From NCBI GenBank assembly GCA_949289295.1, contig CASENM010000040.1, forward strand, positions 3,055 through 67,054: 64,000 bases of DNA. Direction: 5' to 3'. How positions within the stretch are numbered: position 1 is the first letter of the stretch; every line of letters begins with the position of its first letter. Below, piece after piece: positions 7,985 through 57,223 of this stretch. Origin of the DNA: an uncultured Bacteroides sp. GTDB lineage: Bacteria > Bacteroidota > Bacteroidia > Bacteroidales > Bacteroidaceae. The notes beneath the pieces were generated by a model. The model was given only the letters and a program-made list of their open reading frames with translations, was not told the DNA's origin and did not search any database. Made by a program: the position numbers and the translations under genes.

Positions 7985-8046
7985 AAAACGTCGGGGCGTT
8001 TCAGGAAAAACGTTTCGGGCCTTTCGGGAAAACTCCGGTGCGTTTT
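7985..8046. repeat. Degenerate copy of the triple-hairpin 22-bp-period intergenic element
   Basis: Units at 7985, 8007, 8029: AAAACGTCGGGGCGTTTC, AAAACGTTTCGGGCCTTT, AAAACTCCGGTGCGTTTT. Confidence 0.7.
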
Positions 8047-8383
8047 CATGGGAGGGGAAATTTTGTCTGGATGGTTTCTGCAAATGGAAATGTCTGGGGT
8101 GTGAAAATGGTTTCCTGATGAGGTGGGTAGTGTATGATTGTTTGGCAAATAGCGTTTTTGCTTTCGTATGTCCTGTATTCTGTTTGAAAATATATCTTTC
8201 TGACTTTTTGGAAACGGTTCTCCTTTTGATTTTCCAGGCCGGACTTTGCCGGTGAGCGAAACAGACGATTCTCATGGCTTCCGGTTGTCATTTTGTCAAA
8301 CTGACATTTGTCAGAATGTACGGATGTTTTCTTGCAAGTGCCGAATTATTTGCTTTATTTTGCGTGGAATTAAACAAGAACGG

Positions 8384-9889
8384 ATGGAAGATTTTTGGTC
8401 GACAACGGTCCAGGTGGCCGGAGGTAAAGAGAACAGTCTGATTAACAGACGGATGATTTTCCGTATTCTGGGTATCCTGCTTCTGATAGAGGCGATGCTG
8501 TTTCTGGTATGCATGGGCGTATCGTTGTTTTACGGAGAGGACGATTACATTTATTTCGTATATACGGCATTGATAAATGCTGGTGTGGGCAGTGTGCTGA
8601 TTTTTCTGGGGCGTCATGCCAAGAATCTGGTGACACGGAGAGACGGTTACTGCATAGTAGCGTTCACATGGCTGCTTTTTACGGCTTTCGGAATGTTGCC
8701 TTTTTATATCAGCGGAAGTATTCCGGGATTGGCCGACGCTTTTTTTGAGACAATGTCGGGGTTCACCACTACAGGTGCCACCGTACTCGACGACATCGAA
8801 TCGTTGACCCACGGAATGCTGTTCTGGCGGAGCTTTACGCATTGGATCGGAGGTTTGGGAATCATCTTCTTTACAATCGTAGTTTTGCCGATTTTCGGAG
8901 TGGGCAATCAGGTTCTGTTCAAGGCGGAGGCTACAGGAGTCACGCATGACAAAATCCATCCGAAAGTAAGCATAATGGCCAAGTGGCTCTGGACGGTATA
9001 TTCTATTCTGACTCTCGTGGAAACCGTGCTGCTTGTATTCGGAGGGATGGGGTGGTTCGATGCGGTATGCCATGCTTTCGGCACGACTGCCACAGGAGGT
9101 TTTTCTACCAAGCAGGCCAGCGTGGCCTATTGGAATTCTCCGTTTATCGAGTACGTGATTGCCATTTTCATGATTCTTTCGGCGATGAATTTTTCCCTTT
9201 ATTTCATGTGTATGAAAGGACGTTTCGGACAGCTTTTCCGTGATGACGAAACGAAATGGTTCCTGGGGTCTATCCTCGCAGCCACCTTGCTGATTGCCGC
9301 TTCACTGGTGGTCCGTAACGGATACGGGATGGAAGAAGCGTTCCGCAAATCACTTTTCCAGGTGGCTACCCTGCACACTTCAAGCGGATTTGCTACTGAC
9401 GACTATATGAATTGGGCGCCTTTCACGTGGGTAATCTTGATTTATACGATGCTTGCGGGAGGATGTACGGGTTCTACCAGCGGCGGTATCAAGATGATGC
9501 GTCTGCTCATTGTGGTCCGGAATGTGAAGAATGAGTTCCGGCGTATGATGCATCCGCGGGCTGTGTTGCCGATAAAGGTGAACCGGATGGCTGTATCCCA
9601 GTCTACTGTGTCGGGAGTGAGCACCTTTATCCTGCTTTATTTGGGCTGTATATTCGTGGGCTGGTTGGTTTATATGTTTATGGGATTGGGACTGACTGAA
9701 GCGCTGAGTGTCACCGTGTCGAGCGTAGGAAATGCCGGTCTGGCTTTGGGTGCATTCGGACCGGCTTATTCATGGAACGCACTTCCCGAGGCCGGGAAGT
9801 GGCTTTCTTCATTCTTGATGCTTTTGGGGCGTCTGGAACTTTTCGGGATTCTTCTGATGTTTTCGCCCAGTTTCTGGAAAAAACGGTGA
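8384..9889 (+). CDS. trkH: TrkH family potassium uptake membrane protein
   Basis: FETMSGFTTTGAT, WIGGLG, TATGGFS, GGCTGSTSGGIK, GRLE; start at ATG 8384 or slightly downstream. Confidence 0.93.
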   Translation: MEDFWSTTVQVAGGKENSLINRRMIFRILGILLLIEAMLFLVCMGVSLFYGEDDYIYFVYTALINAGVGSVLIFLGRHAKNLVTRRDGYCIVAFTWLLFTAFGMLPFYISGSIPGLADAFFETMSGFTTTGATVLDDIESLTHGMLFWRSFTHWIGGLGIIFFTIVVLPIFGVGNQVLFKAEATGVTHDKIHPKVSIMAKWLWTVYSILTLVETVLLVFGGMGWFDAVCHAFGTTATGGFSTKQASVAYWNSPFIEYVIAIFMILSAMNFSLYFMCMKGRFGQLFRDDETKWFLGSILAATLLIAASLVVRNGYGMEEAFRKSLFQVATLHTSSGFATDDYMNWAPFTWVILIYTMLAGGCTGSTSGGIKMMRLLIVVRNVKNEFRRMMHPRAVLPIKVNRMAVSQSTVSGVSTFILLYLGCIFVGWLVYMFMGLGLTEALSVTVSSVGNAGLALGAFGPAYSWNALPEAGKWLSSFLMLLGRLELFGILLMFSPSFWKKR

Positions 9890-9905
9890 GAGAAGCTTTT
9901 GGCTT

Positions 9906-10451
9906 TTATATCTCCGGTTTGTTGTCATGTGTGGCTTCATGGAGGATGAAGGTGGTGGCCCCCAGCGTAACTACCGCTCCGTCTTCAAGGCGGATGCGGT
10001 CTTTCGGTCCAAGCAGTTCATTCATGTAGAATGTGCCGGTGATGCTGTCGTTGTCGCGGAGAGTGTAGATCATTTTACCCTGCTTGTCACGCTTCACGTG
10101 GATATAACAGTGACGGCGGTCCAGACTCGGGTCGTTGCTTTCGATAGGAATGTCGATGTCGTTTCCTTTGTTGCGGCGTCCTATCAGATTGTCGCCTTCA
10201 TGGAGCGGAAGTACTTGTTTGTAGGCAAATCCGTTTTCGAGGACTATAATATTGCCGAACTCCTGCAAACCGTCGTCCTCGTTCGCACTTTCTTCACGGC
10301 GGTTGGCGGCATTCAGTTTCGATTTTCCGATTCGTATGCTGAACTGCTTCTTACAGTTGTCGCAGATGAAAACCAATGACTGTCCGGTTTTATATTTCGT
10401 CTCGTCAAATTGAATATAATTGTCACATTTCGGACATCTTACTCTTTTCAT
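9906..10451 (-). CDS. Zinc-ribbon + FHA domain protein
   Basis: N-terminal CPKC-x19-CDNC; FHA core IGRR...DRRHC...DNDSITGT. Confidence 0.85.
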   Translation of the reverse strand: MKRVRCPKCDNYIQFDETKYKTGQSLVFICDNCKKQFSIRIGKSKLNAANRREESANEDDGLQEFGNIIVLENGFAYKQVLPLHEGDNLIGRRNKGNDIDIPIESNDPSLDRRHCYIHVKRDKQGKMIYTLRDNDSITGTFYMNELLGPKDRIRLEDGAVVTLGATTFILHEATHDNKPEI

Positions 10452-10471
10452 AAGTCTAGAATTTTTTTATG

Positions 10472-11551
10472 CTAGTTGGAGGAAGTGAAAACCCATGCGC
10501 TCTTGAAGTCTTCTTTTCCCCGGAGCTCGCGTACCTTTTTATAGGCTTCTGTGGCATTGGCATAGCTATAAAGTGCAATGCGGTAGCGGCCCTCTGATTC
10601 TACAATTTCTGCTTCGTCATATCCGTTTTCCCGGTAGGCCTTCAGCGCATCGCGTGCGTCTGCGTCTGTAGTCAGGCTGGCCACTATGATATAAGAGCGG
10701 CGTCCGGTGTGGTTGGCTTGTGCATGAGATTTCTTTTTTTCCGTATCTGCTTTCTTTACGGCCTTGGCCGGCTCTTTTGGTGCAGCAGTCTTCGCTTCCA
10801 CCACTTCGGTCTTTACGGCAACAGGTTTGAGCGTATTGATATTGTTGCGTACTTTCTTTTCCCTGTGGGTGTCTTTCGTTTCTTCCGCCTGTATTTGTAG
10901 GGCAGTGGCGGCCGACTTGTCGCGTATGGCGTCAAACATGTCGAACGAACCCAATGAGGCGAAGTTCGCTTCGTCCATATAAGTATTCTCCACCGGTGTG
11001 GAAAGGATGAAAAACAACAGTATGGCTGCCGCCACAGCTACGGCATTCCGCAGCCAATGGTAAAGGGGAAGCATGGGCCGTTCTTTTCCTGACGGAACGG
11101 TAGCTGGAAGCATGGCCGTATCTTGCGGTTCACGGAGAGGCTTGAGCGAGAATTTGTTCAGGCCGTAGAGGCAAGGAGTGAAAAACGCCCGGTCGGCCGG
11201 TTCAAATTCATAAACTCCGCTCATGTTATAATATAAAGTACCTATCCTGCCCAATTCGAACTGACCTTGCTGGTAGAGCTGCTCTTTCAGTGTATGAACG
11301 GTTTTTTCTATCTTGCGTGTTGCATCAGGGAAGTCCGTATTGTAAGTCTGCATATAAGACTGTACAAGCAATCCGTCGTTGATGACCAGTCGGGGGTTGA
11401 ATCCGATTGTACGCATAGGTGGCTCGAATGTATGGTTGGCCGCGTTGTAGGCTGCCGGTTGGTTATGGGCGATGAACCCTCCCAGGCCAGGAACTATCAC
11501 GCAGTCGTTTTCGAGCAACAATACTTCTATATGTTTGGCTAATTCAATCAT
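10472..11551 (-). CDS. HU/CCDC81-like N-terminal domains + TM helix + C-terminal SPOR domain protein
   Basis: MIELAKHIEVLLLENDCVIVPGLGGF, FNPRLVINDGLL; TM AVAVAAAILLFFILS; SPOR-like YIIVASL...YRIALYSY...AWVF. Confidence 0.82.
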   Translation of the reverse strand: MIELAKHIEVLLLENDCVIVPGLGGFIAHNQPAAYNAANHTFEPPMRTIGFNPRLVINDGLLVQSYMQTYNTDFPDATRKIEKTVHTLKEQLYQQGQFELGRIGTLYYNMSGVYEFEPADRAFFTPCLYGLNKFSLKPLREPQDTAMLPATVPSGKERPMLPLYHWLRNAVAVAAAILLFFILSTPVENTYMDEANFASLGSFDMFDAIRDKSAATALQIQAEETKDTHREKKVRNNINTLKPVAVKTEVVEAKTAAPKEPAKAVKKADTEKKKSHAQANHTGRRSYIIVASLTTDADARDALKAYRENGYDEAEIVESEGRYRIALYSYANATEAYKKVRELRGKEDFKSAWVFTSSN

Positions 11552-11555
11552 ATTG

Positions 11556-11638
11556 CAAAATTAATATTTTTTTCTTTTGGAAAGGACATCTTTCCGGGGG
11601 CATTTTTTCCGCAGAAATCTAAAATTGTTATAAATTTG
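11556..11638. promoter_or_regulatory. Divergent -7 promoter elements (SPOR gene / ugd)
   Basis: TAATTTTG on - (11556-11563) and TAAATTTG on + (11631-11638). Confidence 0.6.
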
Positions 11639-11668
11639 CGGTCAAGTTAAAAAATAGATTCGATAACA

Positions 11669-12982
11669 ATGAATATAGCTATTGTCGGAACAGGATATGT
11701 AGGTCTGGTTTCAGGCACATGTTTTGCCGAAACGGGTGCGAATGTGGTTTGTGTGGATACAGACGATCGTAAGATTGACTCTTTGAAGAAAGGGGAGATA
11801 CCTATTTATGAACCGGGGCTGGAAGAAATGGTGTTGCGCAATGTCAAGGCCGGAAGACTTGGCTTTACCACTTCGCTTGAGAGTTGTCTGAATGATGTGT
11901 CGATAGTGTTTACCGCCGTAGGCACTCCTCCAAATGAAGATGGAAGTGCCGATTTGAGATATGTGCTTGACGTAGCGCGCACTATCGGGAAGCATATCAG
12001 CCGATATATACTTGTGGTGACCAAAAGCACAGTGCCTGTAGGGACAGCCAAGAAAGTGAAGGCAGTCATAGAGGAAGAGCTTCAAAAACGGGGAGTGGAA
12101 ATTGAATTTGATGTGGCTTCCAATCCCGAATTCTTGAAGGAGGGCAATGCTATCAAAGATTTCATGACTCCCGACCGTGTTGTGGTAGGCGTAGAGTCGG
12201 AACGGGCGAAAGAGCTGATGAGTAAATTGTACCGGCCTTTTCTGCTCAATAATTTCCGGGTAATCTTTATGGATATTCCTTCGGCGGAAATGACGAAATA
12301 TGCGGCCAATTCGATGCTGGCCACCCGTATCAGTTTCATGAATGATATTGCCAACTTGTGTGAACGGGTGGGTGCTGACGTGAATATGGTGCGCAGTGGT
12401 CTGGGTTCTGACACACGTATCGGACGGAAATTCTTGTATCCGGGTTGTGGTTATGGGGGGTCATGCTTCCCGAAAGATGTGAAAGCGCTCATCAAGACGG
12501 CTGAAGAGCACGGTTATGAAATGAGAGTGCTGAAAATGGTGGAAGCCGTGAACGAGAGCCAGAAAGATGTTCTTTTCCGTAAGCTTGAAAAATATTACGA
12601 CGGCAAGCTGGAGGGGAAAACCGTAGCCTTGTGGGGATTGGCTTTCAAACCGGAAACCGATGATATGCGTGAAGCTCCGGCTTTGGTATTGGTCGACAAA
12701 TTGCAGAAGGCGGGTTGCCGGATTCGCGTCTATGACCCGGCGGCTATGAAGGAGGCTCAACGCCGATTCGGAGATTCTGTATGTTATGCCCGTGACATGT
12801 ATGATGCTGTGCTGGATGCAGACGCGTTGCTGCTGGTGACTGAATGGAAAGAGTTTCGTCTGCCGGCATGGGGAGTCATCAAAAAAACGATGAACCGGGC
12901 TGTGATTTTTGACGGAAGGAATATTTATGACAGTCAGGAACTCGCTGAGTTGGGAATCGGTTATCATTGTATAGGTAAATGA
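11669..12982 (+). CDS. ugd: UDP-glucose 6-dehydrogenase
   Basis: GTGYVG Rossmann fold, KSTVPVG, NPEFLKEG, KYAAN, GYGGSCFPKD, FKPETDDMRE. Confidence 0.96.
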   Translation: MNIAIVGTGYVGLVSGTCFAETGANVVCVDTDDRKIDSLKKGEIPIYEPGLEEMVLRNVKAGRLGFTTSLESCLNDVSIVFTAVGTPPNEDGSADLRYVLDVARTIGKHISRYILVVTKSTVPVGTAKKVKAVIEEELQKRGVEIEFDVASNPEFLKEGNAIKDFMTPDRVVVGVESERAKELMSKLYRPFLLNNFRVIFMDIPSAEMTKYAANSMLATRISFMNDIANLCERVGADVNMVRSGLGSDTRIGRKFLYPGCGYGGSCFPKDVKALIKTAEEHGYEMRVLKMVEAVNESQKDVLFRKLEKYYDGKLEGKTVALWGLAFKPETDDMREAPALVLVDKLQKAGCRIRVYDPAAMKEAQRRFGDSVCYARDMYDAVLDADALLLVTEWKEFRLPAWGVIKKTMNRAVIFDGRNIYDSQELAELGIGYHCIGK

Positions 12983-12992
12983 CTGTTTTGCT

Positions 12993-13793
12993 ATGGCAAG
13001 TGTTATGAGTAAGAAGGGGTTGGCAGTGCTTTGCATATTGATGTGTACGGCTTGTTCTTTGCAGGAGAAGAAAGTTGCTGAGGAGAAAATGGAAGTTGAT
13101 ACGGCCGCAGTCAGGGAATTGCAGGGCTTATGGCTGGATGACAATACAGAATTGCCGCTTTTCAGAATCAAGGGGGACAGTATCTATTATGCCAGTCAGG
13201 TGAATGTGCCTATGCCGTTTACGGTGATGAACGACACGTTGATGGTGTTCAGTGTAGACACTCTTCTTTACCCCATAAAGGAAAGGGGGCTGTATTCGTT
13301 GGAATACAAATCGTTGACAGGTGATGTGATTGCCGTTCACAAGGCTGAAACGGATACGGTTTCTTTCGGGCTGCCTGTTGTGGAGGAGAAATCGGCCGAC
13401 GAAGTGATTGAGAAAGATTCCGTCATCATGTATAAGGGAGAACGTTTCAGGGGATATGCCTATATCAATCCCACCAGGAAGAAAGTGATTCGTCTGGGCA
13501 TGAGCGAAGAAGGACTTCCTATTGAGAATGTATATTATGACAACATCATTCATATTTGCATCTATAAGGGGAGGGAACGGCTTTTTGCACGTGATATCGA
13601 CAAGGAGATGTTTGCCCAGGTGGTCCCGGTGGATTTCCTGAAACTGTCTATCTTGTCGGATATGGATTTCCTTTCTGTCAACGAAGAAGGATATTGGTAT
13701 CTGGCTACCATTTGCGAACCTGAAGGTGCTTCATGCTATAATGTAAAGCTGAATGTGACTCGAGAAGGGGAAGTCAGGTATATGGTGCAATAG
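12993..13793 (+). CDS. DUF4738-like lipoprotein
   Basis: Lipoprotein signal ending CTAC; LQGLW, ENVYYDNIIHI, CEPEGASCY resemble the Bacteroides DUF4738 family (recalled). Confidence 0.6.
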   Translation: MASVMSKKGLAVLCILMCTACSLQEKKVAEEKMEVDTAAVRELQGLWLDDNTELPLFRIKGDSIYYASQVNVPMPFTVMNDTLMVFSVDTLLYPIKERGLYSLEYKSLTGDVIAVHKAETDTVSFGLPVVEEKSADEVIEKDSVIMYKGERFRGYAYINPTRKKVIRLGMSEEGLPIENVYYDNIIHICIYKGRERLFARDIDKEMFAQVVPVDFLKLSILSDMDFLSVNEEGYWYLATICEPEGASCYNVKLNVTREGEVRYMVQ

Positions 13794-13860
13794 TTTGATT
13801 GGTGTTGTACGGGGGTGCGGATAAATTTCCGGATTTCCCGGCATAATGAGTGGTGAATAT

Positions 13861-13918
13861 AGAAACTGTTTTGATTTTTATTGTCATCCTGTGAACTGAA
13901 AAAATCAAAACAGTTTCT
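13861..13918. terminator. Perfect 19-bp inverted repeat between convergent genes
   Basis: AGAAACTGTTTTGATTTTT (13861-13879) / AAAAATCAAAACAGTTTCT (13900-13918), 20-nt loop. Confidence 0.7.
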
Positions 13919-13922
13919 TTTT

Positions 13923-15197
13923 TTATCTTTTAGTCATGCGGCTCTTTCCGGATGAGGCATTGTTTTTCTTCTTCCATCCGTTTCCTTTGTTGCACGAGAC
14001 CGGTCTCTTCTTGTTGCTGTTCCGTCCTCCGCTTTTGGAGGTACGTGGAGCATAGTCTGGAGTTTCTCCCAGTTCATGAGGTACAGGTATCTTGTAAATG
14101 GTTTTTCCCAGGAAATCCTCTATCTGTTTGAAGCGGGTCTGTTCCGTTTCGCTGACAAAAGTGATGGCGCATCCGTCATTGTTGGCACGTGCCGTACGTC
14201 CGATGCGGTGTACATAGTCTTCACTGTCATGTGGTACGTCGTAGTTGATGACAAGCCGGATGTCATCAATGTCTATTCCACGTGCTACAATATCTGTAGC
14301 TACCAGCAGATTAATCCGTCCGTTGCGGAATTCGTGCATGATTTCTTCCCGTTGGCTTTGTTCAAGATCCGAGTGCATTTCTCCGACATTCAGGTTGAGG
14401 CGTTTCAATGCTTTGGCCACTTCCTTTACTTTCAGTTTTGAGGAAGCGAAAACGATGACCCTTTCAGGCTTCTGCTCCTTGAAGAGCGACTGGATTATAC
14501 CCAGCTTCTGCGCTTCGTAACAAATATATGCAGTCTGGATAATTTTTTCGGCAGGTTTGGATACTGCCAGTTTCACTTCTACCGGATTTTGCAGGATTGT
14601 GTTGGCCAGCTGTTGTATTTTTGTCGGCATGGTAGCCGAAAACATGATAGTCTGCCGTTCTTTTGGCAGATATTTTACAATCTGCATGATGTCTTCGTAA
14701 AATCCCATGTCGAGCATCCGGTCAGCTTCGTCGAGAACGAAGAATGATACCTTTGACAAGTCTACATACCCTAGGCTGAGATGGCTGATAAGGCGTCCCG
14801 GGGTGGCTATCACCACATCTGCCCCCAAAGTGAGTCCTTTTTTCTCTTGCTCGAAGCGGATACCGTCGTTTCCTCCATAGACGGCTACACTTGAAACCGG
14901 CATGAAGTAGGAGAATCCTTCCATCTGTTGGTCGATTTGCATGGCCAGTTCACGGGTTGGAGCCATAACGATACAGTTGATGGCATCTTCCGGATAGCCG
15001 CCTTTGCTGAGCTGGTTCAATACGGGCAGCAGATAAGCCGCTGTTTTTCCGGTTCCGGTTTGAGCTACTCCAATCAGGTCATGCCCTTCCAGAATGACTG
15101 GAATGGTCTGTTCCTGCACCGGAGTGCATTCCCGGAAATTCATTGCGTCGAGTGCATCCAGCACGCTGTCTTCTAAGTATAGGTCTGAAAACTTCAT
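13923..15197 (-). CDS. DEAD-box RNA helicase (RhlE-like)
   Basis: Q motif, AQTGTGKT, PTRELA, DEAD, SAT, ARGID, HRIGRTAR; basic tail; start trimmed to MKFSDL. Confidence 0.95.
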   Translation of the reverse strand: MKFSDLYLEDSVLDALDAMNFRECTPVQEQTIPVILEGHDLIGVAQTGTGKTAAYLLPVLNQLSKGGYPEDAINCIVMAPTRELAMQIDQQMEGFSYFMPVSSVAVYGGNDGIRFEQEKKGLTLGADVVIATPGRLISHLSLGYVDLSKVSFFVLDEADRMLDMGFYEDIMQIVKYLPKERQTIMFSATMPTKIQQLANTILQNPVEVKLAVSKPAEKIIQTAYICYEAQKLGIIQSLFKEQKPERVIVFASSKLKVKEVAKALKRLNLNVGEMHSDLEQSQREEIMHEFRNGRINLLVATDIVARGIDIDDIRLVINYDVPHDSEDYVHRIGRTARANNDGCAITFVSETEQTRFKQIEDFLGKTIYKIPVPHELGETPDYAPRTSKSGGRNSNKKRPVSCNKGNGWKKKNNASSGKSRMTKR

Positions 15198-15219
15198 ATT
15201 GTTTTTTATATTTTGGTCA

Positions 15220-16452
15220 TTACAGTTTTCCCCGTTCTTCAAGGTAAGAGTCTTTGAATCCCAAGAAATAAAGTACTCCGTCCAGTCCGATGGTATTGAT
15301 GGATTGGCGTGCGTTTTCCACTACCTTGGGCTTTGCGTGGAAAGCGATTCCCAATCCCGCTGCAGACAGCATGGGGAGGTCGTTGGCACCGTCGCCCACC
15401 GCGATAGTCTGCGCGATGTCCACTTTCTCCACTTGTGCGATGAGTTGCAGAAGTTCTGCCTTGCGTCTTCCGTCTACGATATCACCTACATATCGCCCTG
15501 TCAGTTTTCCGTCTACGATTTCCAGATTGTTGGCATATACATAGTCAATGCCGAACTTTTCTTTCAGATAATTGCCGAAGTAGGTGAATCCTCCCGACAA
15601 GATGGCGATTTTATATCCGTAACGTTTCAGCACGTACATCAGGCGTTCTACGCCCTCCGTGATGGGCAGGTGTTCGGCTATGTCTTTCATGACGCTTTCA
15701 TCGAGTCCTTTCAGCAAAGCGACCCTTTCGGTGAAGCTTTCCTTGAAGTCGATTTCTCCTCTCATGGCCCTTTCGGTGATGGCCTTGACCTGGTCGCCGA
15801 CACCGGCTCTTATGGCCAGCTCGTCGATGACTTCAGTCTGTATCAGAGTCGAATCCATATCAAAACAGATAAGTCGCCGCATACGGCGGTACATTGTGTC
15901 TTGCTGGAAAGAGAAGTCCATGGAAAGTGAAGAGCTGAGTTTCATGAGCTGATGTTGAAGTTCTTCGCGGTCTTTGGGAGTGCCTCTTACCGAGAATTCG
16001 ATACATGCCCGGACACTGGCCTTCTTTTCGTCCAGAGGGATACGTCCGGTCAGACGCCGGATTCCATCGATGTTGAGCTGCTGTGCCGCCAGAATTTTAG
16101 TGGCGCCCGAGATTTGTTCGGCCGTAAGCTTGCGTCCCAGCAGAGTCAGGATATACCGGTTTTTCCCCTGCATGTTTACCCATGATTCATATTCTTCGGG
16201 CGAAACCGGGTAAAAGCGGAGGTCGATGCCTAGTTCGGATGCTTTGAAGAGCAGGTCTTTCATCACGTTGCCCGAATCGCTTTCGGAGCATTTGAAAAGG
16301 ATGCCCAATGAAAGCGTGCTATGGATATCCGCTTGTCCGATATCCATGATGTCCACCTTATACCTTGACAAAATTTCAGTGATTGCCGCTGTCAGTCCGG
16401 GGCGGTCTATTCCGTTGATGCGGATTAATATCAATTCTGTTCTGTTTTCCAT
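15220..16452 (-). CDS. serB: Phosphoserine phosphatase with N-terminal ACT domains
   Basis: GIDRPG ACT start; HAD motifs DMDST, SGGF, K, GDGANDLPM. Confidence 0.95.
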   Translation of the reverse strand: MENRTELILIRINGIDRPGLTAAITEILSRYKVDIMDIGQADIHSTLSLGILFKCSESDSGNVMKDLLFKASELGIDLRFYPVSPEEYESWVNMQGKNRYILTLLGRKLTAEQISGATKILAAQQLNIDGIRRLTGRIPLDEKKASVRACIEFSVRGTPKDREELQHQLMKLSSSLSMDFSFQQDTMYRRMRRLICFDMDSTLIQTEVIDELAIRAGVGDQVKAITERAMRGEIDFKESFTERVALLKGLDESVMKDIAEHLPITEGVERLMYVLKRYGYKIAILSGGFTYFGNYLKEKFGIDYVYANNLEIVDGKLTGRYVGDIVDGRRKAELLQLIAQVEKVDIAQTIAVGDGANDLPMLSAAGLGIAFHAKPKVVENARQSINTIGLDGVLYFLGFKDSYLEERGKL

Positions 16453-16473
16453 GGGTCAATTGCGTTATATCGG

Positions 16474-16481
16474 CAAATTTA
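16474..16481 (-). promoter_or_regulatory. -7 promoter element of serB
   Basis: TAAATTTG on the - strand. Confidence 0.6.
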
Positions 16482-16516
16482 CGAAATATCTCGGTATTTT
16501 TGGATGTATGTCATAT

Positions 16517-16554
16517 AAAAAAGCCGTTCCTTTTCGGTAAGGAGCGGCTTTTTT
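16517..16554. terminator. Rho-independent terminator after htpG
   Basis: AAAAAAGCCGTTCCTT-TTCGGT-AAGGAGCGGCTTTTTT with A/T tracts on both sides. Confidence 0.85.
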
Positions 16555-16598
16555 AAACTTTTTGTCCGTATTAATGAGCACGTACGTGCAGATTACTG

Positions 16599-18650: not shown

Positions 18651-18705
18651 ATCTTGTTTATATTTTTAGTGATTATACATGAAAAAAAATCACAGGCATT
18701 CACGC

Positions 18706-18741
18706 AAAAAAAATGCCAGACATATGGATGCCTGACATTTT
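18706..18741 (-). terminator. Probable Rho-independent terminator of clpC
   Basis: On - strand AAAATGTCAGGCAT-CCAT-ATGTCTGGCATTTT then TTTT (stem with G-U pairs). Confidence 0.6.
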
Positions 18742-18769
18742 GTCTGTATGTGGAATGACAGGCGGACAA

Positions 18770-21304: not shown

Positions 21305-21347
21305 CGATATTTATTACTCCTTTTTATTTATATAATTCCCAATTTTG

Positions 21348-21355
21348 CAAAAATA
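21348..21355 (-). promoter_or_regulatory. -7 promoter element of clpC
   Basis: TATTTTTG on the - strand. Confidence 0.55.
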
Positions 21356-21442: not shown

Positions 21443-21504
21443 AAAACGCTTCGGCGTTTTGGATAAAACTCCTAGGCGTTTCGGGTAAAACGCCGAAGCG
21501 TTTT
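21443..21504. repeat. Triple-hairpin 22-bp-period intergenic element
   Basis: AAAACGCTTCGGCGTTTT ggat AAAACTCCTAGGCGTTTC gggt AAAACGCCGAAGCGTTTT; unit 3 is the reverse complement of unit 1. Confidence 0.9.
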
Positions 21505-21730
21505 TCCGAGAATCCCTTCCGGTTCTCTCCTGCGCGGATGCGACTGCTTGTCTGCACAGGCCGGCCTGAATGCTCCTGCAAAATGTGTGCCATAACAGGA
21601 AGCAGTTTTCCTCTGGAGGGTGCTCCGTGCATTTTTTGGCAGAAAAGTTTTTGTATATCGTGTAAAAGTCGTACTTTAGCATGATTTTTCACGAAGCTGA
21701 AAGAAAGTATAATTAATTACATTGTTTTAA

Positions 21731-34775: not shown

Positions 34776-34837
34776 AAAACGCTTCGGCGTTTCGGTTAAA
34801 ACGTCTAGGCGTTTTGATTGAAACGCCGAAGCGTTTT
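34776..34837. repeat. Triple-hairpin 22-bp-period intergenic element
   Basis: AAAACGCTTCGGCGTTTC ggtt AAAACGTCTAGGCGTTTT gatt GAAACGCCGAAGCGTTTT. Confidence 0.9.
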
Positions 34838-40866: not shown

Positions 40867-40871
40867 TTGAA

Positions 40872-42041: not shown

Positions 42042-42047
42042 GAACCT

Positions 42048-43859: not shown

Positions 43860-43979
43860 GGGTAATTTCAGAAAATTTCTTGAATCTGGATAGTGGCTGA
43901 AGTGAGATTTTTTGTATATTTCGATTTTCTGAGTTATGCATATGCTATGCTTTAATTCTTGATTAAAAATCGAAATATT

Positions 43980-44645: not shown

Positions 44646-45217
44646 TGGTTAATATGCTATACGTTGTAAAATATATTGGGAAGTTCGGTTTTATCAAACC
44701 ATGGACTGCCGTTCGTGACGGGAAAACCTATAGTCAGCAGTTTCTGACTCCTTCTGTGATTGAAGGAATCGAGAAAAAACTCTTTCCAGACATGCTGAAA
44801 TGTAATGGAGAAATAAAGAGAATAAAAAGATACAAGCTCCGTTATTCGGCTATAGACATGCAGCAGGAACAGATACACCCTCGCGGATGGACCTTCAATT
44901 CAAAATCGAAGACAATGTCACGTTTGCGGTCGGTTCTTTTAAGGGGAGTGATGCTGGATCCGGTGCTGTTGCTGGCATTTGACAATTTGTGTGATGCACA
45001 GACAGCAATGGCACAGCACATCTGTCTGTGCAGGAATGAGGACGTTTTATTGCCGGAAGAGGATGTGATTGTCATGAATGAACAGGAATTTCAAGAAGAA
45101 AAAGGTTTTGAACTTCGGTTTGGAAAGTCGGGAAATTCTTTTTTAGTCGGTTATAACCGTTTTAATGGCCAACCCATGTATGGCTGGTTGGAAATAGACG
45201 GCGTTTCAGTCTTATAG
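44645..45217 (+). CDS. cas5: Divergent Cas5-like RAMP
   Basis: N-terminal YIGKFGFIKPWTAV...TYS..FLTPSVIEGI resembles the Cas5 N-terminus; C-terminal CLCRNED at the G-loop position; located within the cas operon. Confidence 0.65.
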   Translation: MVNMLYVVKYIGKFGFIKPWTAVRDGKTYSQQFLTPSVIEGIEKKLFPDMLKCNGEIKRIKRYKLRYSAIDMQQEQIHPRGWTFNSKSKTMSRLRSVLLRGVMLDPVLLLAFDNLCDAQTAMAQHICLCRNEDVLLPEEDVIVMNEQEFQEEKGFELRFGKSGNSFLVGYNRFNGQPMYGWLEIDGVSVL

Positions 45218-45219
45218 TT

Positions 45220-47352: not shown

Positions 47353-47354
47353 TT

Positions 47355-48656: not shown

Positions 48657-48661
48657 ATTCT

Positions 48662-49768
48662 ATGAATCCATTTATCTATTTGCGTGCGTTGAAACACGCT
48701 GAACATACTGTTTTCTGTGTAGAAGATGGTCAGAAAACTTATTATGATCCACAATTCAACAGGTACTCACCTTATTCCAGCGGGCAGCAGGTGAAACGTT
48801 CCATCTTACAGTCTGTAACTGACATCTTGAATGCTCCGATGGCACCAATTACATTTAATTATAGCATTACGAAAAACAACGAGTTGGAAAATAAAGAACC
48901 ATGGTCTCCTTGTGATCCGGCTTATGTGGATCAGTTGTTGGGCGGTTGGATGAGAGCAAAGACGGCTGCAGGTAAAACAAAAAATGATGGCGACAAGGAT
49001 AATTCTAAAGAAAATAATGTGATTAAACGCAGAAGCCCTCTGTCGATATCCGCAATGCGCCCAATTCATCCGTTGTTGGCTGGTGTGGACAGTGAGAATC
49101 TTACTTTTGACCGTAGTGACCGTCCGGACTATCATCCTGTAAATGTCAGGAGAGCCGGTAGCGATAAACTTTTGACGGAAGATGAGATAGAAGCTTTCTT
49201 GTCGGACAATGGGCGTACTCTTTCACGAAGGGTTTGGATTCCTGACAATAAAAGAGCTACGGGGCTTTTTGTTTATGACGTGGCCATTGATTTGCGTACG
49301 CTCTTCTGTGTCTCGACAAACCAGCATGAACCGGAAATCTCTAGAGATATGATTGATGAACTTAAATCCAAAGGATGGGTTGAAAGCGAGAATGTGTTTG
49401 GAAAATGCCTTGTATTGCCTGAGGCAGAGCGTAAGAAAGTAATCCCTGCATTGGCGGATGCGCTGATTGATTGGAGAATTACATCGAACCAGGCCCGTAC
49501 ATTTAGTTTGATGGAAACGTTGGCTATTGCAGTGAGTGACAATGCAAATGCTATAGCAGCAGCCATACGTGCGAAATTGATTGATGATAGCGAGAAGCCC
49601 AAGGCGAAACCTATTGTGGATGCAAATGCCGGAGCTGATTTGTTTGTGACTTTGCCATGTGCAAGTTATATTGTGACAGAATGTGAATCTCCGGATGCTA
49701 TTGAAAACGCGAAGCAGAATCTGATCAAGCGAATGTCGGATTTTGATTATGAGAATCAGAATTGTTGA
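48662..49768 (+). CDS. cas7: Cas7 backbone subunit
   Basis: PYSSGQQVKRSI, DQLLGGWM, RRSPLSISAMRP, GLFVYDVAIDL follow the Cas7 RRM pattern. Confidence 0.85.
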   Translation: MNPFIYLRALKHAEHTVFCVEDGQKTYYDPQFNRYSPYSSGQQVKRSILQSVTDILNAPMAPITFNYSITKNNELENKEPWSPCDPAYVDQLLGGWMRAKTAAGKTKNDGDKDNSKENNVIKRRSPLSISAMRPIHPLLAGVDSENLTFDRSDRPDYHPVNVRRAGSDKLLTEDEIEAFLSDNGRTLSRRVWIPDNKRATGLFVYDVAIDLRTLFCVSTNQHEPEISRDMIDELKSKGWVESENVFGKCLVLPEAERKKVIPALADALIDWRITSNQARTFSLMETLAIAVSDNANAIAAAIRAKLIDDSEKPKAKPIVDANAGADLFVTLPCASYIVTECESPDAIENAKQNLIKRMSDFDYENQNC

Positions 49769-49783
49769 TTGTTGGATTTAAAT

Positions 49784-49821
49784 AAGTCCTTCTGACCTTC
49801 TCTCTATGGAAAGAAGGACTT
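49784..49821 (+). terminator. Hairpin between cas7 and cas4
   Basis: AAGTCCTTCT / AGAAGGACTT perfect 10-bp IR followed by T-rich sequence. Confidence 0.45.
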
Positions 49822-49837
49822 GTCTTTCTAGTTTTAT

Positions 49838-50344
49838 ATGCTTACAGGAACTCATTTCAATTATTACCAAGTATGTAAACGTAAGCTTTGGTTGTTTGCC
49901 AATGGCATAAACATGGAGCACACTTCAGACTTGGTGCTTGAAGGCAGGCTTATTCATGAAGATTCCTATCCTCAACGCTCGGACAAATATGAGGAAATAG
50001 AACTGGACGGGATAAAGGTTGACTTTTATGATCCGAAGCGGAAGGTGATTCATGAAATCAAGAAATCGAACAAGGTGGAGGCGGCTCATGAATGGCAGCT
50101 GAAATATTACATCTATGTGTTTGAACGGAATGGGATAGAAGGTGTGACTGGGGTGCTGGAATACCCCACACTGCGGAAAACGCAAGAAGTGTTGTTGAGT
50201 GACGTGGATAGGGAGCGTATAAAGGAGATGGAGGCAGACATACAGCGGATTATTTCCGGTGACGATTGTCCGTCTTTACAGAAGAGAGGCATTTGCCGGA
50301 ATTGCAGTTATTTTGATTTTTGTTATAGCGGAGAGGAGGAGTAA
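49838..50344 (+). CDS. cas4: Cas4 exonuclease
   Basis: CKRKLW, RecB motifs VDFY..HEIKKS, QLKYY, C-terminal C...[10 protein letters not shown] Fe-S cluster. Confidence 0.96.
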
Positions 50345-51360
50345 TGAAAAAGACATTTTATTTGTTCAATCCCGGGATGCTGGAACGGAAGGATAATACC
50401 TTGAAGTTCACTCCGTGTGCAGATGACGGTGAACGGCCTGACGCGAATGCACAGTCGCGTTATTTGCCGGTAGAAGATATCAGCGAATTTTATGTGTTCG
50501 GTTCGTTGCGGGCAAACAGTGCCTTGTTCAACTTTCTGGGGCAGAAGGACATTGCCGTGCATTTCTTTGACTATTACGAAAACTATACAGGTTCGTTCAT
50601 GCCTCGCGACAGTCTGCTTTCTGGCAAGATGTTGCTGGCGCAGACTTCTCATTATCAGAATCAGAAAAAGCGTATGGCAATCGCCCGGAAGTTTATAGAA
50701 GGAGCCGCATACAATATGGTGAAGAATCTGCAGTATTACAACCGCCGGGGAAAAGACATGGAGGACATCATGGAACTGATGAACAAGCTGTCTGCCCAAA
50801 TACCTGATATGCAGACAACGGAAGAGCTTATGGGGATAGAAGGTCAGATCAGGCAGTATTATTATGAGGCGTTTGACTTGATAATCAATGATTTTGAGAT
50901 GGGCAACCGTACAAAACGGCCGCCTCAGAATGAGGTTAACGCCCTGATTTCGTTCGGCAATATGGTTTGCTATACGATTTGTCTGCGTGCCATTCATCAG
51001 ACTCAGTTGAATCCGACCATCAGCTATCTGCACAAACCGGGAGAACGCCGTTATTCGCTGGCGCTGGATATAGCGGAAATATTCAAGCCTATAATAGTGG
51101 ATAGGGTAATATTCAAAGTATTGAACAGGAAAGAGATTCAGGAAAAACATTTTGACAGAAAACTGAACAAATGTTTGCTGAATACAGCAGGAAAGAAGAT
51201 ATTTGTGAAAGCTATAGAGGACAGGCTGGGAGAGACCATCAAGCACCGCTCATTGCACCGTTCGGTGAGCTACCGCCATCTTGTAAAACTGGAGTGCTAT
51301 AAGCTGGCCAAGCATCTGCTGTCGATGGAAGAATATAAACCTTTTAAGATGTATTGGTGA
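50344..51360 (+). CDS. cas1: Cas1 integrase (I-B type)
   Basis: [43 protein letters not shown]. Confidence 0.97.
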
Positions 51361-51623
51361 TGTACGTGATTTTGGTTTATGATTTCGGTGAGAAGCGTGT
51401 CGGCAAGATGCTCAAGCTCTGCCGTAAGTATTTGAACTGGATACAGAATTCTGTCTTTGAGGGTGAGATTTCGGAAGCCCGTCTGAAAGAACTGTTGATG
51501 CAGAGTGACAAGTTTATGAACAAGAACGAGGACAGTATAATCATTTTCAGCGGTCCTTCCCAGTCGTCAATGGAGAAAAGGATTGTGGGTAAGGAACGTT
51601 CAACATTAGATATCTTTTTGTGA
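51360..51623 (+). CDS. cas2: Cas2
   Basis: [25 protein letters not shown]. Confidence 0.97.
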   Translation: MYVILVYDFGEKRVGKMLKLCRKYLNWIQNSVFEGEISEARLKELLMQSDKFMNKNEDSIIIFSGPSQSSMEKRIVGKERSTLDIFL

Positions 51624-51840
51624 ATGCAAACAGGTTGTCGGCCATACTATAGTTTCCCGTTTTACTAGGGGTTATTGTGGTTAGAGTTCTATGACTCGTT
51701 GTAACACAAATAGTTGGAGATATGTCGACTCTCAATATATTTTTTATCATTGAGGGTCGACATATTTCTCATTATTTTTTCGTACATTTGCATTCGCCAA
51801 ACCATTTAAAATCAGTGGAGATACTTTTTTAGAGTGGAGG
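51624..51840 (+). promoter_or_regulatory. CRISPR leader
   Basis: AT-rich, 217 bp; 17-bp IR ATATGTCGACTCTCAAT (51720-51736) / ATTGAGGGTCGACATAT (51749-51765); -7 element TACATTTG at 51783-51790. Confidence 0.85.
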
Positions 51841-54800
51841 CTTTTAATCGTACCATTTGGAATTGAAACTTTGGTTTCGTTTTGGTTTCCGTTTGGTTTC
51901 CGTTTCTTTTAATCGTACCATTTGGAATTGAAACACACTTCTCTTATGCGGTCGTCCGCCAGCTTGTGCAGCTTTTAATCGTACCATTTGGAATTGAAAC
52001 GTACTCATCCTTTGTTACGCCCGCAACCTCTTCGGGCTTTTAATCGTACCATTTGGAATTGAAACTTGCTATATCTGCAAGGGAGCGAATGCCAGCGCAA
52101 CTTTTAATCGTACCATTTGGAATTGAAACCGCATTTCGTTTGATTCGCTCAAAGGAACAGGTAACTTTTAATCGTACCATTTGGAATTGAAACGTCTGTA
52201 AAATAGAACTACTGACACTTTGATACACTTTTAATCGTACCATTTGGAATTGAAACCAATGATTAACAAGGGGACGGAAGAGATTAACAAACTTTTAATC
52301 GTACCATTTGGAATTGAAACGTCGTACGCACTTGATTGTTGTTATCTGGATGTCCTTCTTTTAATCGTACCATTTGGAATTGAAACATACTCTTTCTCGT
52401 TGGTTACTCTGTCGGCTGCGGCCTTTTAATCGTACCATTTGGAATTGAAACAAGCACCTGGCGGAACGCGGCCTCCATATTGGACGGACTTTTAATCGTA
52501 CCATTTGGAATTGAAACATGTATTCTCGGCGCTCAGGACGCTAAAGGAAGCCCCTTTTAATCGTACCATTTGGAATTGAAACGTTTGAGCTGGAACGATT
52601 TCCATTATTACAGCCACTTTTAATCGTACCATTTGGAATTGAAACACAGTTATTTCAAGATACTTGCGGACGGTTCCTTCGCTTTTAATCGTACCATTTG
52701 GAATTGAAACGCATTAAAATCATTTTTTTCATAATCTATTGTTTCTTTTAATCGTACCATTTGGAATTGAAACTTCTTCTGGAGCAAGGGAGTCAACGAC
52801 TACCTGAACCTTTTAATCGTACCATTTGGAATTGAAACAGGATAGGCAGCCAAGGGTGGACGTGCTGGACGGCTTTTAATCGTACCATTTGGAATTGAAA
52901 CGATTGCAAGTTCACTTAACTGCAATGCTCAGCAGGCTTTTAATCGTACCATTTGGAATTGAAACAATACTTCATTACTCATCTTTTCTATTCGAGAAAA
53001 AGACTTTTAATCGTACCATTTGGAATTGAAACAGATAACTTTGAATTTTTTAGGAGGCGGGCAAAGACTTTTAATCGTACCATTTGGAATTGAAACTGAT
53101 TTTCTTCATTTCTTCCTGCGGCGCATCCGTCTTTTAATCGTACCATTTGGAATTGAAACCGTCAAGCTTCTGATATACCGGGGTCACTGCCACTTTCTTT
53201 TAATCGTACCATTTGGAATTGAAACTAAGGTATACGTGGACGGATACGGATGGAAAGAACTTTTAATCGTACCATTTGGAATTGAAACTATTGTCTTTCC
53301 CCTTGTCGGGTGTCCGAACAGACTTTTAATCGTACCATTTGGAATTGAAACTACGCTTCAAGGTATTCCCTCATGCCCGATGGCAACCTTTTAATCGTAC
53401 CATTTGGAATTGAAACTTGTAACGGAACCATCGGCGTTAATAGTAATCAAATCACTTTTAATCGTACCATTTGGAATTGAAACATATATAAAGGACCTGC
53501 TGAACAAACGAAACGACACTTTTAATCGTACCATTTGGAATTGAAACTGGATACGCCTTGTGCTTGGGCGCTGCCGGTGCTCTTTTAATCGTACCATTTG
53601 GAATTGAAACTGGATACGCCTTGTGCTTGGGCGCTGCCGGTGCTGCATTTTAATCTTACAAAATGGAATTGAAACAACGAGGAAGGTGTAATTCCGGAGT
53701 ACGACATTCCTTTTAATCGTACCATTTGGAATTGAAACTGGATACGCCTTGTGCTTGGGCGCTGCCGGTGCTGCTTTTAATCGTACCATTTGGAATTGAA
53801 ACAGCAAGGCAGCAAGTTAACAGTAAGTACAAACAGCTTTTAATCGTACCATTTGGAATTGAAACTGCAGAAACGCCAATTTATGAAGGAGGGATGTCAT
53901 CTTTTAATCGTACCATTTGGAATTGAAACTGGAATGCGGCTTCAAAGTATCCGGTTACCACTTCTTCTTTTAATCGTACCATTTGGAATTGAAACAAGGG
54001 AAATGGCAAGGACACAAAACAACTACGAGCTTTTAATCGTACCATTTGGAATTGAAACGCCTTTCGACATTGTCCCGTGAAACCGGAACGGCTCTTTTAA
54101 TCGTACCATTTGGAATTGAAACACCGTCCGGGGCGAACTCTTTTTCCGCCTCCTCGCACTTTTAATCGTACCATTTGGAATTGAAACCAAGTTCCATTCT
54201 GTCACCGGCTTTGCGTGAGCGTGCTTTTAATCGTACCATTTGGAATTGAAACGATAGTGAGGAAGACAAGGGTAATGACCTACCTGCTTTTAATCGTACC
54301 ATTTGGAATTGAAACCAGTTAGCCCGTTATTGGGGTATCTAACCCCGACCTTTTAATCGTACCATTTGGAATTGAAACCGGCTATTGCGGCAATCGTAAT
54401 GTACTTGTTCATCTTTTAATCGTACCATTTGGAATTGAAACTAATTTCCTGATTGCCATTTGTCTTGATGACGTCCCTTTTAATCGTACCATTTGGAATT
54501 GAAACGAACAACCGTGAACATTTCCGAATACCACGCCTCCCTTTTAATCGTACCATTTGGAATTGAAACTGCGTAAGGCCCAGGTACAAGGCCAGGCAAT
54601 CCGGCTTTTAATCGTACCATTTGGAATTGAAACAACTGAAGAAAGAGGGGAATCAGGCTGCACACGGGCTTTTAATCGTACCATTTGGAATTGAAACCTC
54701 TTCCCCTGAGGACGTTGTATCAGCTTTCGTACCCTTTTAATCGTACCATTTGGAATTGAAACGTTCTTGAACTCTTGTTTTTTTAAGATTAATTCTCTTT

Positions 54801-56559
54801 TAATCGTACCATTTGGAATTGAAACGCGTATGAGTGATTACTATAAGAAGAAGTATGACCTTTTAATCGTACCATTTGGAATTGAAACTTACTCAGAAGA
54901 AACACCTGAGGCAGCAGGTGCAGGACTTTTAATCGTACCATTTGGAATTGAAACGCCTATAAAACGACTCGACATTACTGCGATCGCGAACTTTTAATCG
55001 TATCATTTGGAATTGAAACGGACATAGACCTGGATAAGCGGCCTTTTCCTTATCTTTTAATCGTACCATTTGGAATTGAAACGGGCTAGCTCTATCAGAT
55101 TGTATTCTTTCTCCAACTTTTAATCGTACCATTTGGAATTGAAACAATCAACGCCGTTGCGGATACCATATTTCCGATTTCTTTTAATCGTACCATTTGG
55201 AATTGAAACTTTCTCCGTATTCGTCACTGATTATACAGGTGACGGTCTTTTAATCGTACCATTTGGAATTGAAACTTGCTTCCGGAGAGTTCTCCTCCCC
55301 TTCCGTATCCTCTTTTAATCGTACCATTTGGAATTGAAACTCAGACTCATGCGGAGTATTACCTCGACATCCCAGCTTTTAATCGTACCATTTGGAATTG
55401 AAACACTTTAAATATTTCTATCGTTTTAATCCCTACCAATCTTTTAATCGTACCATTTGGAATTGAAACATTGTATTGCCTCGGCTTTGATGCTTTTCAG
55501 AGCCTTTTAATCGTACCATTTGGAATTGAAACCAGGACATAAGATGGGAGCCCGGCGTTGACATTGCTTTTAATCGTACCATTTGGAATTGAAACGGCGA
55601 TAAACGCCACGGTTACGGCGTTGGAACAGCACTTTTAATCGTACCATTTGGAATTGAAACGTCAATACAACGCCTACATTATCATCCTGCCCGGACCTTT
55701 TAATCGTACCATTTGGAATTGAAACCAATTAAATTATGGAATAAACGTTAATTATCAAAACTTTTAATCGTACCATTTGGAATTGAAACGATGGAGACGA
55801 TAGCGGAATTGCAGGGGACTGTAACTTTTAATCGTACCATTTGGAATTGAAACACAGTTCCCCGTATAAGAACGAGATGTTCAGGGATCTTTTAATCGTA
55901 CCATTTGGAATTGAAACTAGCCTCCTTGATCGCGTTGTCATTGCACTGCGGACTTTTAATCGTACCATTTGGAATTGAAACCACGTCACGGTAATAGATC
56001 CCCGTCTTTTCCGGCCTTTTAATCGTACCATTTGGAATTGAAACGAATGTGCTTCATCGCCTTCACGTAGAAGTCCTGCTTTTAATCGTACCATTTGGAA
56101 TTGAAACATATTCTTTCTCCCCTCTGTACTGGAATTGATGTACACTTTTAATCGTACCATTTGGAATTGAAACTCGGAAAGGAACGCACGCGGGCGCACG
56201 CATACGCGCCTTTTAATCGTACCATTTGGAATTGAAACTTACCTGCTCAGACCAGATCGGAACAGGCTGGAAGCTTTTAATCGTACCATTTGGAATTGAA
56301 ACGCAGGATAATTAGAAATGACTCTAAGGCTGTCATCTTTTAATCGTACCATTTGGAATTGAAACTGGCCAGAGCCGTCCTTCAGAAATTTCTCTATCGT
56401 TTCTTTTAATCGTACCATTTGGAATTGAAACCCAGCAGCTCGTTCTGCTTGCGTACGTCGGCAATCTTTTAATCGTACCATTTGGAATTGAAACTCGGAA
56501 ACAGACGGGTTACAGAATACGAGTTCGTGACTTTTAATCGTACCATTTGGAATTGAGGC
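51841..56559 (+). CRISPR. CRISPR array, 74 repeats / 73 spacers (34-38 nt)
   Basis: 29-nt repeat CTTTTAATCGTACCATTTGGAATTGAAAC, counted manually; variants R29 (53647-53675), R50 (54991-55019, one C>T) and terminal R74 ending GAGGC; the ATTGAAAC 3' end, leader position and degenerate end give + orientation. Confidence 0.99.
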
Positions 56560-56680
56560 AAAGAATTTCACGATATTTTCCGTAAATCTTTTGATTGAAG
56601 TCAGACCTTTTATTGCTCATTGCGACACTTTTAGTCATGCCGGATGGTATCGGAACAATGGCTGGTAAGGCGGAGTGTTT

Positions 56681-57070
56681 TTATTTGTTCGCTGGAAATA
56701 AGTTGCCCGTCCATCCGCCTGCCAATGCCGCTGCTACGCCTAAAATAATGCTCGCACTGATATATGCCAGAAATGTCCCGTAGTATCCTTGCCGGAGCAT
56801 GGAGATTCCTTCGTGACTGAATGTAGAGAAAGTGGTAAATCCTCCGCAGAGTCCAGTGGTCAAGAAAAGTCTTGTTTCGTCGGAAAGGTTAAAGCGTGAA
56901 GATAGGGCATAAAACAAGCCGATAAGGAAGCTGCCTGCTATGTTTACGCTGAGTGTGGCCCAGGGGAAGACAAAAGGGGAGATGCGGCCATGCATGAATA
57001 CTTGTACGCTGTAGCGCAACAAGCTGCCTAGGCCGCCTCCCAGAAAGACTGTGATTAATATTTTGGTCAT
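56681..57070 (-). CDS. crcB: Fluoride channel Fluc/CrcB
   Basis: GGGLGSLLRY, ATLSVNIAGSF, TTGLCGGFTTFSTF; promoter TAAATTTG at 57099-57106 (-). Confidence 0.96.
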   Translation of the reverse strand: MTKILITVFLGGGLGSLLRYSVQVFMHGRISPFVFPWATLSVNIAGSFLIGLFYALSSRFNLSDETRLFLTTGLCGGFTTFSTFSHEGISMLRQGYYGTFLAYISASIILGVAAALAGGWTGNLFPANK

Positions 57071-57161
57071 TCGGGTCTGATGATTAAAAAAAGCGTTGCA
57101 AATTTACGGAAAAATTGGATAAACGGCAATGTGCCATCAGCCGAATCCGTGCCGTCGGGGA

Positions 57162-57223
57162 AAAACACTTCGGTGTTTTGACCGGAACGCTTCGACGTTT
57201 CAGCCAAAACGCCGAAGCGTTTT
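57162..57223. repeat. Triple-hairpin 22-bp-period intergenic element
   Basis: AAAACACTTCGGTGTTTT gacc GGAACGCTTCGACGTTTC agcc AAAACGCCGAAGCGTTTT, then a partial 4th unit at 57228. Confidence 0.9.

Follow-up and report, generated by a model that had tools for sequence, protein, structure and literature searches.

Modular 22-bp palindromic arrays dispersed through Phocaeicola genomes: a candidate RAYT-independent, REP/BIME-like repeat with predicted bidirectional terminator features

Four intergenic arrays of a short palindromic unit lie in the window, the 64,000-nucleotide stretch of DNA analyzed here (contig CASENM010000040.1 of the uncultured Bacteroides sp. assembly GCA_949289295.1; C40:3055-67054 in our contig numbering), and they belong to a dispersed, genome-wide family of non-coding modular palindromes for which a chance origin is excluded. 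The source genome, a Phocaeicola (2.85 Mb in 52 contigs, 47.9% GC, 99.6% complete), holds approximately 125 of these arrays. We lean toward reading the family as a repeat of the repetitive extragenic palindrome/bacterial interspersed mosaic element (REP/BIME) kind that is independent of any REP-associated tyrosine transposase (RAYT, a Y1 HUH transposase), and that mostly serves, or is tolerated, as a predicted bidirectional terminator of transcription. The original prediction for this window had likewise proposed a dispersed REP/BIME-like family, and this much is borne out by the copy number in the source genome and by the presence of arrays in 42 of 108 Phocaeicola species.

The repeating module is 22 bp long and consists of 2 invariant, inverted arms, AAAACG and CGTTTT, a variable 6-bp center, and a 4-bp linker; arms and center together make up an 18-bp unit, AAAACG-N6-CGTTTT, with a 6-6-6 layout. 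Exact AAACG-N6-CGTTT units number 242 in the source genome and 3 after shuffling of that genome, an excess over background that had been anticipated from the window alone, and the array pattern read backwards, which served as a control, gave 0 matches in all genomes searched. Chaining of units yields approximately 380 units in total, arranged as 89 three-unit, 20 four-unit, 15 two-unit, and 1 five-unit arrays. Spacing is nearly rigid across the genome, as the window copies had suggested: adjacent units start 22 bp apart in 245 of 254 pairs, 21 bp apart in 8, and 23 bp apart in 1, indels being very rare. The sequence logo of the unit is symmetric, the linker consensus is symmetric in purines and pyrimidines, and sequence outside the arrays is not conserved. 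In the three-unit arrays, the first center is CTTCGG in 51 of 89 and the third is CCGAAG in 49 of 89, these 2 being reverse complements of each other, and the middle unit is variable. The symmetric cassette described from the window copies, in which units 1 and 3 are each other's reverse complement, recurs with at most 1 mismatch in 50 of the 89. Four-unit arrays, which also have 4-bp linkers, contain their reverse-complementary pairs as units 1/2 and 3/4. No flanking direct repeats beyond chance, such as a target-site duplication would leave, were found, and the palindrome stops at the array edges. The arrays in the source genome are intergenic except where they overlap crude open reading frames (ORFs) near the ORF 5′ ends, overlaps that we take to be over-extended start calls.

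Given the reverse complementarity of units 1 and 3, the 62-bp three-unit cassette is a dyad with a one-hairpin fold, and it is better read in this way than as the 3 separate hairpins of the original prediction. A single long hairpin, in which unit 1 pairs with unit 3 and unit 2 forms the tip, is the fold found in 66 of the 89 three-unit arrays (mean −30 kcal/mol). Both structures were tested by shuffles on an alignment of these 89 arrays. With the long pairing, 88.0% of cells are paired versus 85.8% in shuffles, two-sided changes number 83 versus 54 ± 6 (a value reached in 0 of 500 shuffles), and the covariation score is 0.168 versus 0.133, a signal that may reflect selection or else the arrays' origin in palindromic master copies. 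With 3 small hairpins, the proportion of paired cells (87.7%) is the same as the mean over shuffles, the covariation score is 0.115 versus 0.118, and the proposed selection on separate hairpins is not upheld. The double change that had been taken as a sign of such selection (ACAC...GTGT) is indeed present in the window copy starting at 57162, but changes of this kind are no commoner than in shuffles, and it is no evidence of selection on the small hairpins. A search of the window against Rfam 15 gave no match at the gathering score, copy 3 drawing only sub-threshold matches to generic hairpins (miRNA precursors).

The placement of the arrays relative to genes is consistent with a role in transcription termination. 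The sequence and positional features of an intrinsic bidirectional terminator are found in them: a stable stem, a T-run on each strand, and a location 3′ of genes. Distances from an array to the 3′ end of a neighboring gene peak at 15 to 50 bp past the stop codon, approximately half of the gene ends that point at an array have it within this interval, and convergent intergenic regions often contain little beyond the array itself. The T-run is lengthened by at least 2 T's beyond the array on 27 of 90 sides where a transcript would exit versus 13 of the 94 remaining sides (p = 0.012). In tandem contexts, the array is closer to the upstream stop codon in 28 of 43 cases, which is only suggestive (p = 0.066). 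In 48 of 92 cases, the Bacteroides −7 box TAnnTTTG falls between an array and the start codon downstream of it. If these arrays function as their sequence predicts, then one that stands behind a gene would most likely act as a compact bidirectional intrinsic terminator or as a 3′-end hairpin. The three-unit cassette, as RNA or single-stranded DNA, would fold into one hairpin of approximately 25 to 30 bp with an A-run and a T-run on either side, and a four-module array would form 2 hairpins, one from modules 1 and 2 and the other from modules 3 and 4. An array between divergent promoters would probably be neutral or insulating.

Orthologous sites bear on the same question. Twelve convergent-gene sites of the source genome were compared with 4 relatives (genomes G015, G053, G044, and G018). 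At C24:78694, C15:33707, and C4:92441, the sister species G015 carries arrays with centers of its own and sometimes another number of units, and the sites are empty in G053, G044, and G018, giving both filled and empty states for the comparison that the original prediction had envisaged. At C30:56258 and C16:79836, G015 has an ordinary hairpin of A-tract, stem, and T-tract in the array's spot, and G044 and G018 have a canonical hairpin of this same build at the C24 site; the canonical hairpins of relatives at array sites range from −16 to −38 kcal/mol. The occurrence of arrays in the very spots where relatives have canonical terminators implies that the site still needs a terminator. In the clpC/gyrA intergenic region, the array is absent in 17 of 17 other Phocaeicola species, and degenerate remnants are recognizable in the window copy starting at 7985 and in G015 at the C41:84508 site.

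Copies are gained and lost between species, and within species length changes occur in steps of exactly 22 bp. The source-genome arrays at C27:100678 and C27:111024 are present wherever ten same-species contigs cover them, and the window copy between crcB and nqrA was found in 4 same-species metagenome contigs with few single-nucleotide polymorphisms (SNPs) only. In one strain, precisely the middle 22-bp unit is missing. At 3 sites examined for presence/absence polymorphism within the species none was seen, all samples being occupied, and unit number alone changed. Copies also become alike within each genome, which makes the centers species specific even at shared sites; the process would be slippage together with gene conversion, or re-copying between copies. 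Within-species array SNPs are mostly CpG transitions (CpG to TpG or CpA in L261-L269), and a Vsr gene for very-short-patch repair is near (L261:16145-16654), which hints at cytosine methylation at CG-containing sites. The number of tRNA gene copies in one intergenic region varies among strains (one or two, with or without spacer; L261-L267, approximately 1480-1570 in locus coordinates). A 744-bp stretch at C6:65680-66423 is 99% identical to G015:C39:25548-26289 (L160), including a four-unit array with G015-type centers, and other flanking sequences are 75% to 89% identical between the 2 species; this suggests recent exchange or mis-binning. At G015:C45:79082-79867 (L161), orthologous to C18:141831, a different palindromic repeat (TATAGTCCACGGGCTGGACCGTATAG-like) is apparently inserted between array units.

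At least one two-unit match is present in 42 of 108 Phocaeicola species genomes, with 1 to 145 matches among carriers, and the family is absent from all 400 other high-quality Bacteroidota genomes searched (179 genera). Among the species genomes scanned, the named carriers were Phocaeicola plebeius, Bacteroides (Phocaeicola) mediterraneensis, P. fibrisolvens, and Ca. P. excrementigallinarum, along with related metagenome-assembled genomes (MAGs); pair matches number 23 in P. plebeius DSM 17135 and 106 in B. mediterraneensis, the listed ones of the latter spanning approximately 0.3 to 3.0 Mb of a 4-Mb scaffold. Stray carriers with low counts are two MAGs, one of the Prevotellaceae and one of the Porphyromonadaceae (the latter with ten direct units), and Kaistella chaponensis, a Flavobacteriales isolate with direct AAAACGTCCTTACGTTTT units identical to a common Phocaeicola variant (L079:749-830 and L285:1501-1582). 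One Kaistella array lies upstream of an HU-HIG gene, and the other lies between convergent genes, a position that we count in favor of the terminator role. Units of Phocaeicola type with CACTTG and TCCTTG centers also occur on a 540-bp contig of an assembly of the actinobacterium Mangrovihabitans (L078, NZ_BMMX01000192.1), where they are probably assembly contamination. Arms and the 22-bp period are constant in all carriers, and the 6-bp centers are species specific: CTTCGG/CCGAAG in the source genome, TCAAGG/CCTTGA in G015, CACTTG/CAAGTG in G014, and TCCGTT/AACGGA in G074. Since centers differ by species, the cUUCGg loop to which the original prediction gave prominence is a local trait of the source species and does not define the family. 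A metagenome scan around the window returned other species only (at most 82% identity), with 0 arrays in 952 kb. An origin in phages or plasmids was considered and rejected, phage and plasmid collections giving 0 array matches and viral contigs only 10 among 2.9 million.

Several observations weigh against a terminator role, and most of them would be expected of a selfish or neutral repeat that spreads and is tolerated where it is harmless, behind genes and upstream of promoters, with no function of its own. That 3 of the 4 window copies lie between divergent genes, as had been pointed out, holds in the window but does not describe the genome, where arrays have 25 divergent, 23 convergent, and 44 tandem contexts; even so, 27% of the arrays stand between divergent genes, a setting that calls for no terminator, and the arrays are spread over intergenic classes roughly by the number of regions, close to background. 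At least 1 array (C41:84508) sits in a short, operon-like spacer. The sense strand shows no excess of G·U over A·C mismatches (36 versus 51). SNP density is 24 per kb in arrays (only 3 SNPs), 11 in intergenic DNA, and 7 in coding sequence, and since arrays are not below their neighbors, purifying selection on their sequence is not visible. The predominance of CpG transitions among these SNPs, the patchy, burst-like copy numbers in the genus (0 to 145), and the degenerate remnants also fit a neutral repeat. This alternative is possible, if unlikely: it would not lead one to expect arrays exactly in the spots of relatives' canonical terminators, the enrichment of T-run extensions on transcript-exit sides, or arms that stay constant in 42 species and scattered other Bacteroidota while the centers turn over.

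A binding array for a protein is a distinctly improbable alternative. Here, each 18-bp palindrome would be the site of a dimeric protein (a nucleoid protein, a gyrase-like factor, or a recombinase), with the 22-bp phasing bringing consecutive sites onto almost the same helical face. Invariant arms and period alongside species-specific centers and linkers, the rarity of indels, and the symmetric linker consensus would all suit such an array, but a bidirectional terminator likewise requires an A-run, a CG clamp, and a T-run. No candidate protein was found, and there is no fixed relation between array and promoter. No gene recurs beside the arrays in the source genome or in low-copy genomes, and the listed arrays of B. 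mediterraneensis are spread over approximately 3 Mb of the 4-Mb scaffold. An HU-HIG gene adjoins one of the Kaistella arrays but was rejected as a candidate, its single homologue in the source genome having no array nearby.

The search for a mobilizer considered several other candidates. Genes for SusC-like paralogs have an upstream array in 7 of 29 cases versus 4.3 expected from intergenic length, which is not meaningful, and a "home locus" in low-copy genomes was discounted, the neighbors there being unrelated housekeeping genes. The arrays lack the traits of a MITE (miniature inverted-repeat transposable element): they have neither a target-site duplication nor terminal inverted repeats matching an insertion sequence (IS), and no multi-copy IS was found in the assembly. 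Two kinds of mini-gene with word arrays of their own were encountered along the way. Small four-helix-bundle genes (PF05635), wedged between other genes at C51:92044-92355 and C42:5952-6248, are bracketed by inverted tandem heptamers (AATTAAC-like and GAATGAA-like), and GxxExxY mini-genes (PF13366) at C12:19448-19795 and C30:52645-52992, which have orthologues in G015, lie between inverted arrays of CACAGAT-like and GCAGAGA-like words. As partners of the 22-bp arrays, both were rejected; their own arrays are of 7- to 8-nt words and do not adjoin the 22-bp arrays, and their presence in array-rich versus array-free genomes (PF05635, 7 of 13 versus 5 of 12; PF13366, 7 of 13 versus 2 of 12) is not convincing. 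A hypothetical enzyme of another kind is rather unlikely but worth stating: the arms could be recognition sites of a non-HUH enzyme or DNA-binding protein in Phocaeicola that copies, flips, and overwrites single 22-bp modules, which would explain the exact 22-bp steps, the occurrence of modules in either orientation, and the species-specific centers at orthologous sites. If this were true, it would represent a new mechanism of mobilization or concerted evolution for REP-like DNA.

Two further explanations fare worst. That the units are 3 independent RNA hairpins with cUUCGg tetraloops, forming a cis-regulatory or small RNA under structural selection, is very improbable and already disfavored: each unit could close a UUCG loop with a 7-bp stem and the copy starting at 57162 keeps its stem through a double change, but covariation for the small hairpins, strand bias, and an Rfam match are all absent, the minimum-energy fold is mostly the long hairpin, and centers in other species do not close the 7th pair. 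A classical REP/BIME mobilized by a RAYT, which the original prediction had suggested and to which intergenic palindromic units in clusters of alternating orientation with no target duplication and the Bacteroidetes-specific TnpA-REP subclass of the literature (PMC6006769) might point, is contradicted already, as the source genome has no match to PF01797 (positive controls worked), a Y1 transposase gene is present in 1 of 12 array-rich versus 2 of 12 array-free relatives, where it is packed between other genes with no units within 1.5 kb, and the unit has no GTAG or CGTC head.

Returning to the window, all 4 copies have exactly the coordinates and the three-unit build that had been assigned to them, and the flanking gene pairs named for the 3 divergent copies were confirmed (Table 1). 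Folds range from −35 to −49 kcal/mol with z of −7 to −10, apart from the degenerate copy 1. The copies in divergent contexts lie upstream of both proximal promoters; copy 2 forms one long hairpin. Copy 3, in front of an outer membrane protein (OMP) gene on the + strand, was flagged as a terminator-like site on that strand. Two other features of the window were noted. The clpC-like gene has upstream of it a sigma-54-like motif, TGGCAC-N5-TTGC, which is kept in this region in nearly all of the 17 other Phocaeicola species compared, and copy 2 stands between it and the proximal TAnnTTTG promoter. A large CRISPR array, which has no relation to the 22-bp arrays, stops just short of crcB.

Table 1. 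Array copies and other features in the window (positions are those of the window).
Feature	Position	Units or sequence	Context	Fold
Copy 1, degenerate	7985-8046	7985-8002, 8007-8024, 8029-8046	between tkt (-) and trkH (+)	z -1.8
Copy 2	21443-21504	21443-21460 (CTTCGG), 21465-21482, 21487-21504 (CCGAAG)	between clpC-like (-) and gyrA (+)	-45 kcal/mol
Copy 3	34776-34837	34776-34793, 34798-34815, 34820-34837	42 bp past stop of DNA-alkylation-repair gene (+); then TTTTTT	-48.9 kcal/mol, z -10.5
Copy 4	57162-57223	57162-57179 (ACAC...GTGT variant), 57184-57201, 57206-57223	between crcB (-) and nqrA (+)	
Sigma-54-like motif	21578-21592	minus strand TGGCACACATTTTGC	upstream of clpC-like gene	
CRISPR array	51841-56559	29-nt repeat CTTTTAATCGTACCATTTGGAATTGAAAC, ~73 repeats, period ~64 bp	next to crcB	

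The family is apparently undescribed, no description of it having been found in the literature searched or in Rfam, and annotation pipelines at present leave array loci blank. Phocaeicola is a dominant gut genus, and since the type strain P. plebeius DSM 17135 and B. mediterraneensis carry arrays, study in culture is possible. Species-specific centers at the same sites make this a clean case of concerted evolution, and polymorphism of unit number in 22-bp steps could aid strain typing. If the terminator role is true, then engineers of Bacteroides would gain from the cassette a compact bidirectional terminator part only 62 bp long.

Among known systems, 2 kinds of element resemble the arrays in part only. 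The BrickBuilt minisatellite-MITE of Porphyromonas gingivalis (PMC4596501) is likewise an intergenic tandem array in a Bacteroidales host, with a 22- to 23-bp period and tens of copies, but its 23-nt unit (AGAYCATARTATCCTCTCRTRTG) is unrelated, non-palindromic, and repeated in direct orientation only, and its leader and tail segments carry IS5-type terminal inverted repeats, whereas the Phocaeicola arrays have neither leader nor tail. The inverted pairs of DNA uptake sequences and the Correia elements of Neisseria are, as the arrays would be, repeat families with a second role as terminators behind genes; they differ in sequence and organization, there is no sign of an uptake function in the arrays, and the arrays lack both the terminal inverted repeats and the TA duplication of Correia elements.

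The likeness to bidirectional intrinsic (Rho-independent) terminators extends to the A-run, the G-C pairs at the stem base, and the T-run, as well as to positions 15 to 50 bp past stops, between convergent genes, and in the spots of relatives' terminators. Ordinary terminators are unique to each site, however, whereas the arrays are one modular family, a quarter of which stands where, judging from gene orientation, no terminator would be needed.

The closest known kind is REP/BIME, known from Enterobacteria and Pseudomonads (and as REPINs with RAYT). Common to both are high-copy, short, imperfect intergenic palindromes that often lie just behind genes, mosaics of alternating orientation with short linkers and no target duplication, lineage-specific subfamilies, and roles proposed in termination and in protection of mRNA 3′ ends. 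Two defining features of REPs are missing from this family, namely the RAYT gene, which is absent from the source genome with none correlating across the genus, and the asymmetric GTAG or CGTC head (as defined in PMC3733652), since the units are fully symmetric. The arrays are set further apart by their Bacteroidota host and by a strict 22-bp module, whose 6-bp arms are invariant and whose 6-bp center varies freely. The nearest variant is the CGTC-tagged REPs (Di Nocera et al. 2013, PMC3733652), which "apparently lack a dedicated transposase," were reported from five phyla including Bacteroidetes, and are often dimers. Their 8- to 9-bp stems and 4- to 5-nt loops are combined with a CGTC head, which is asymmetric, and a CCA tail; the Phocaeicola units differ in being symmetric and in having CGTC in some center variants only. 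The arrays add a Bacteroidota case of REP-like DNA that has no RAYT.

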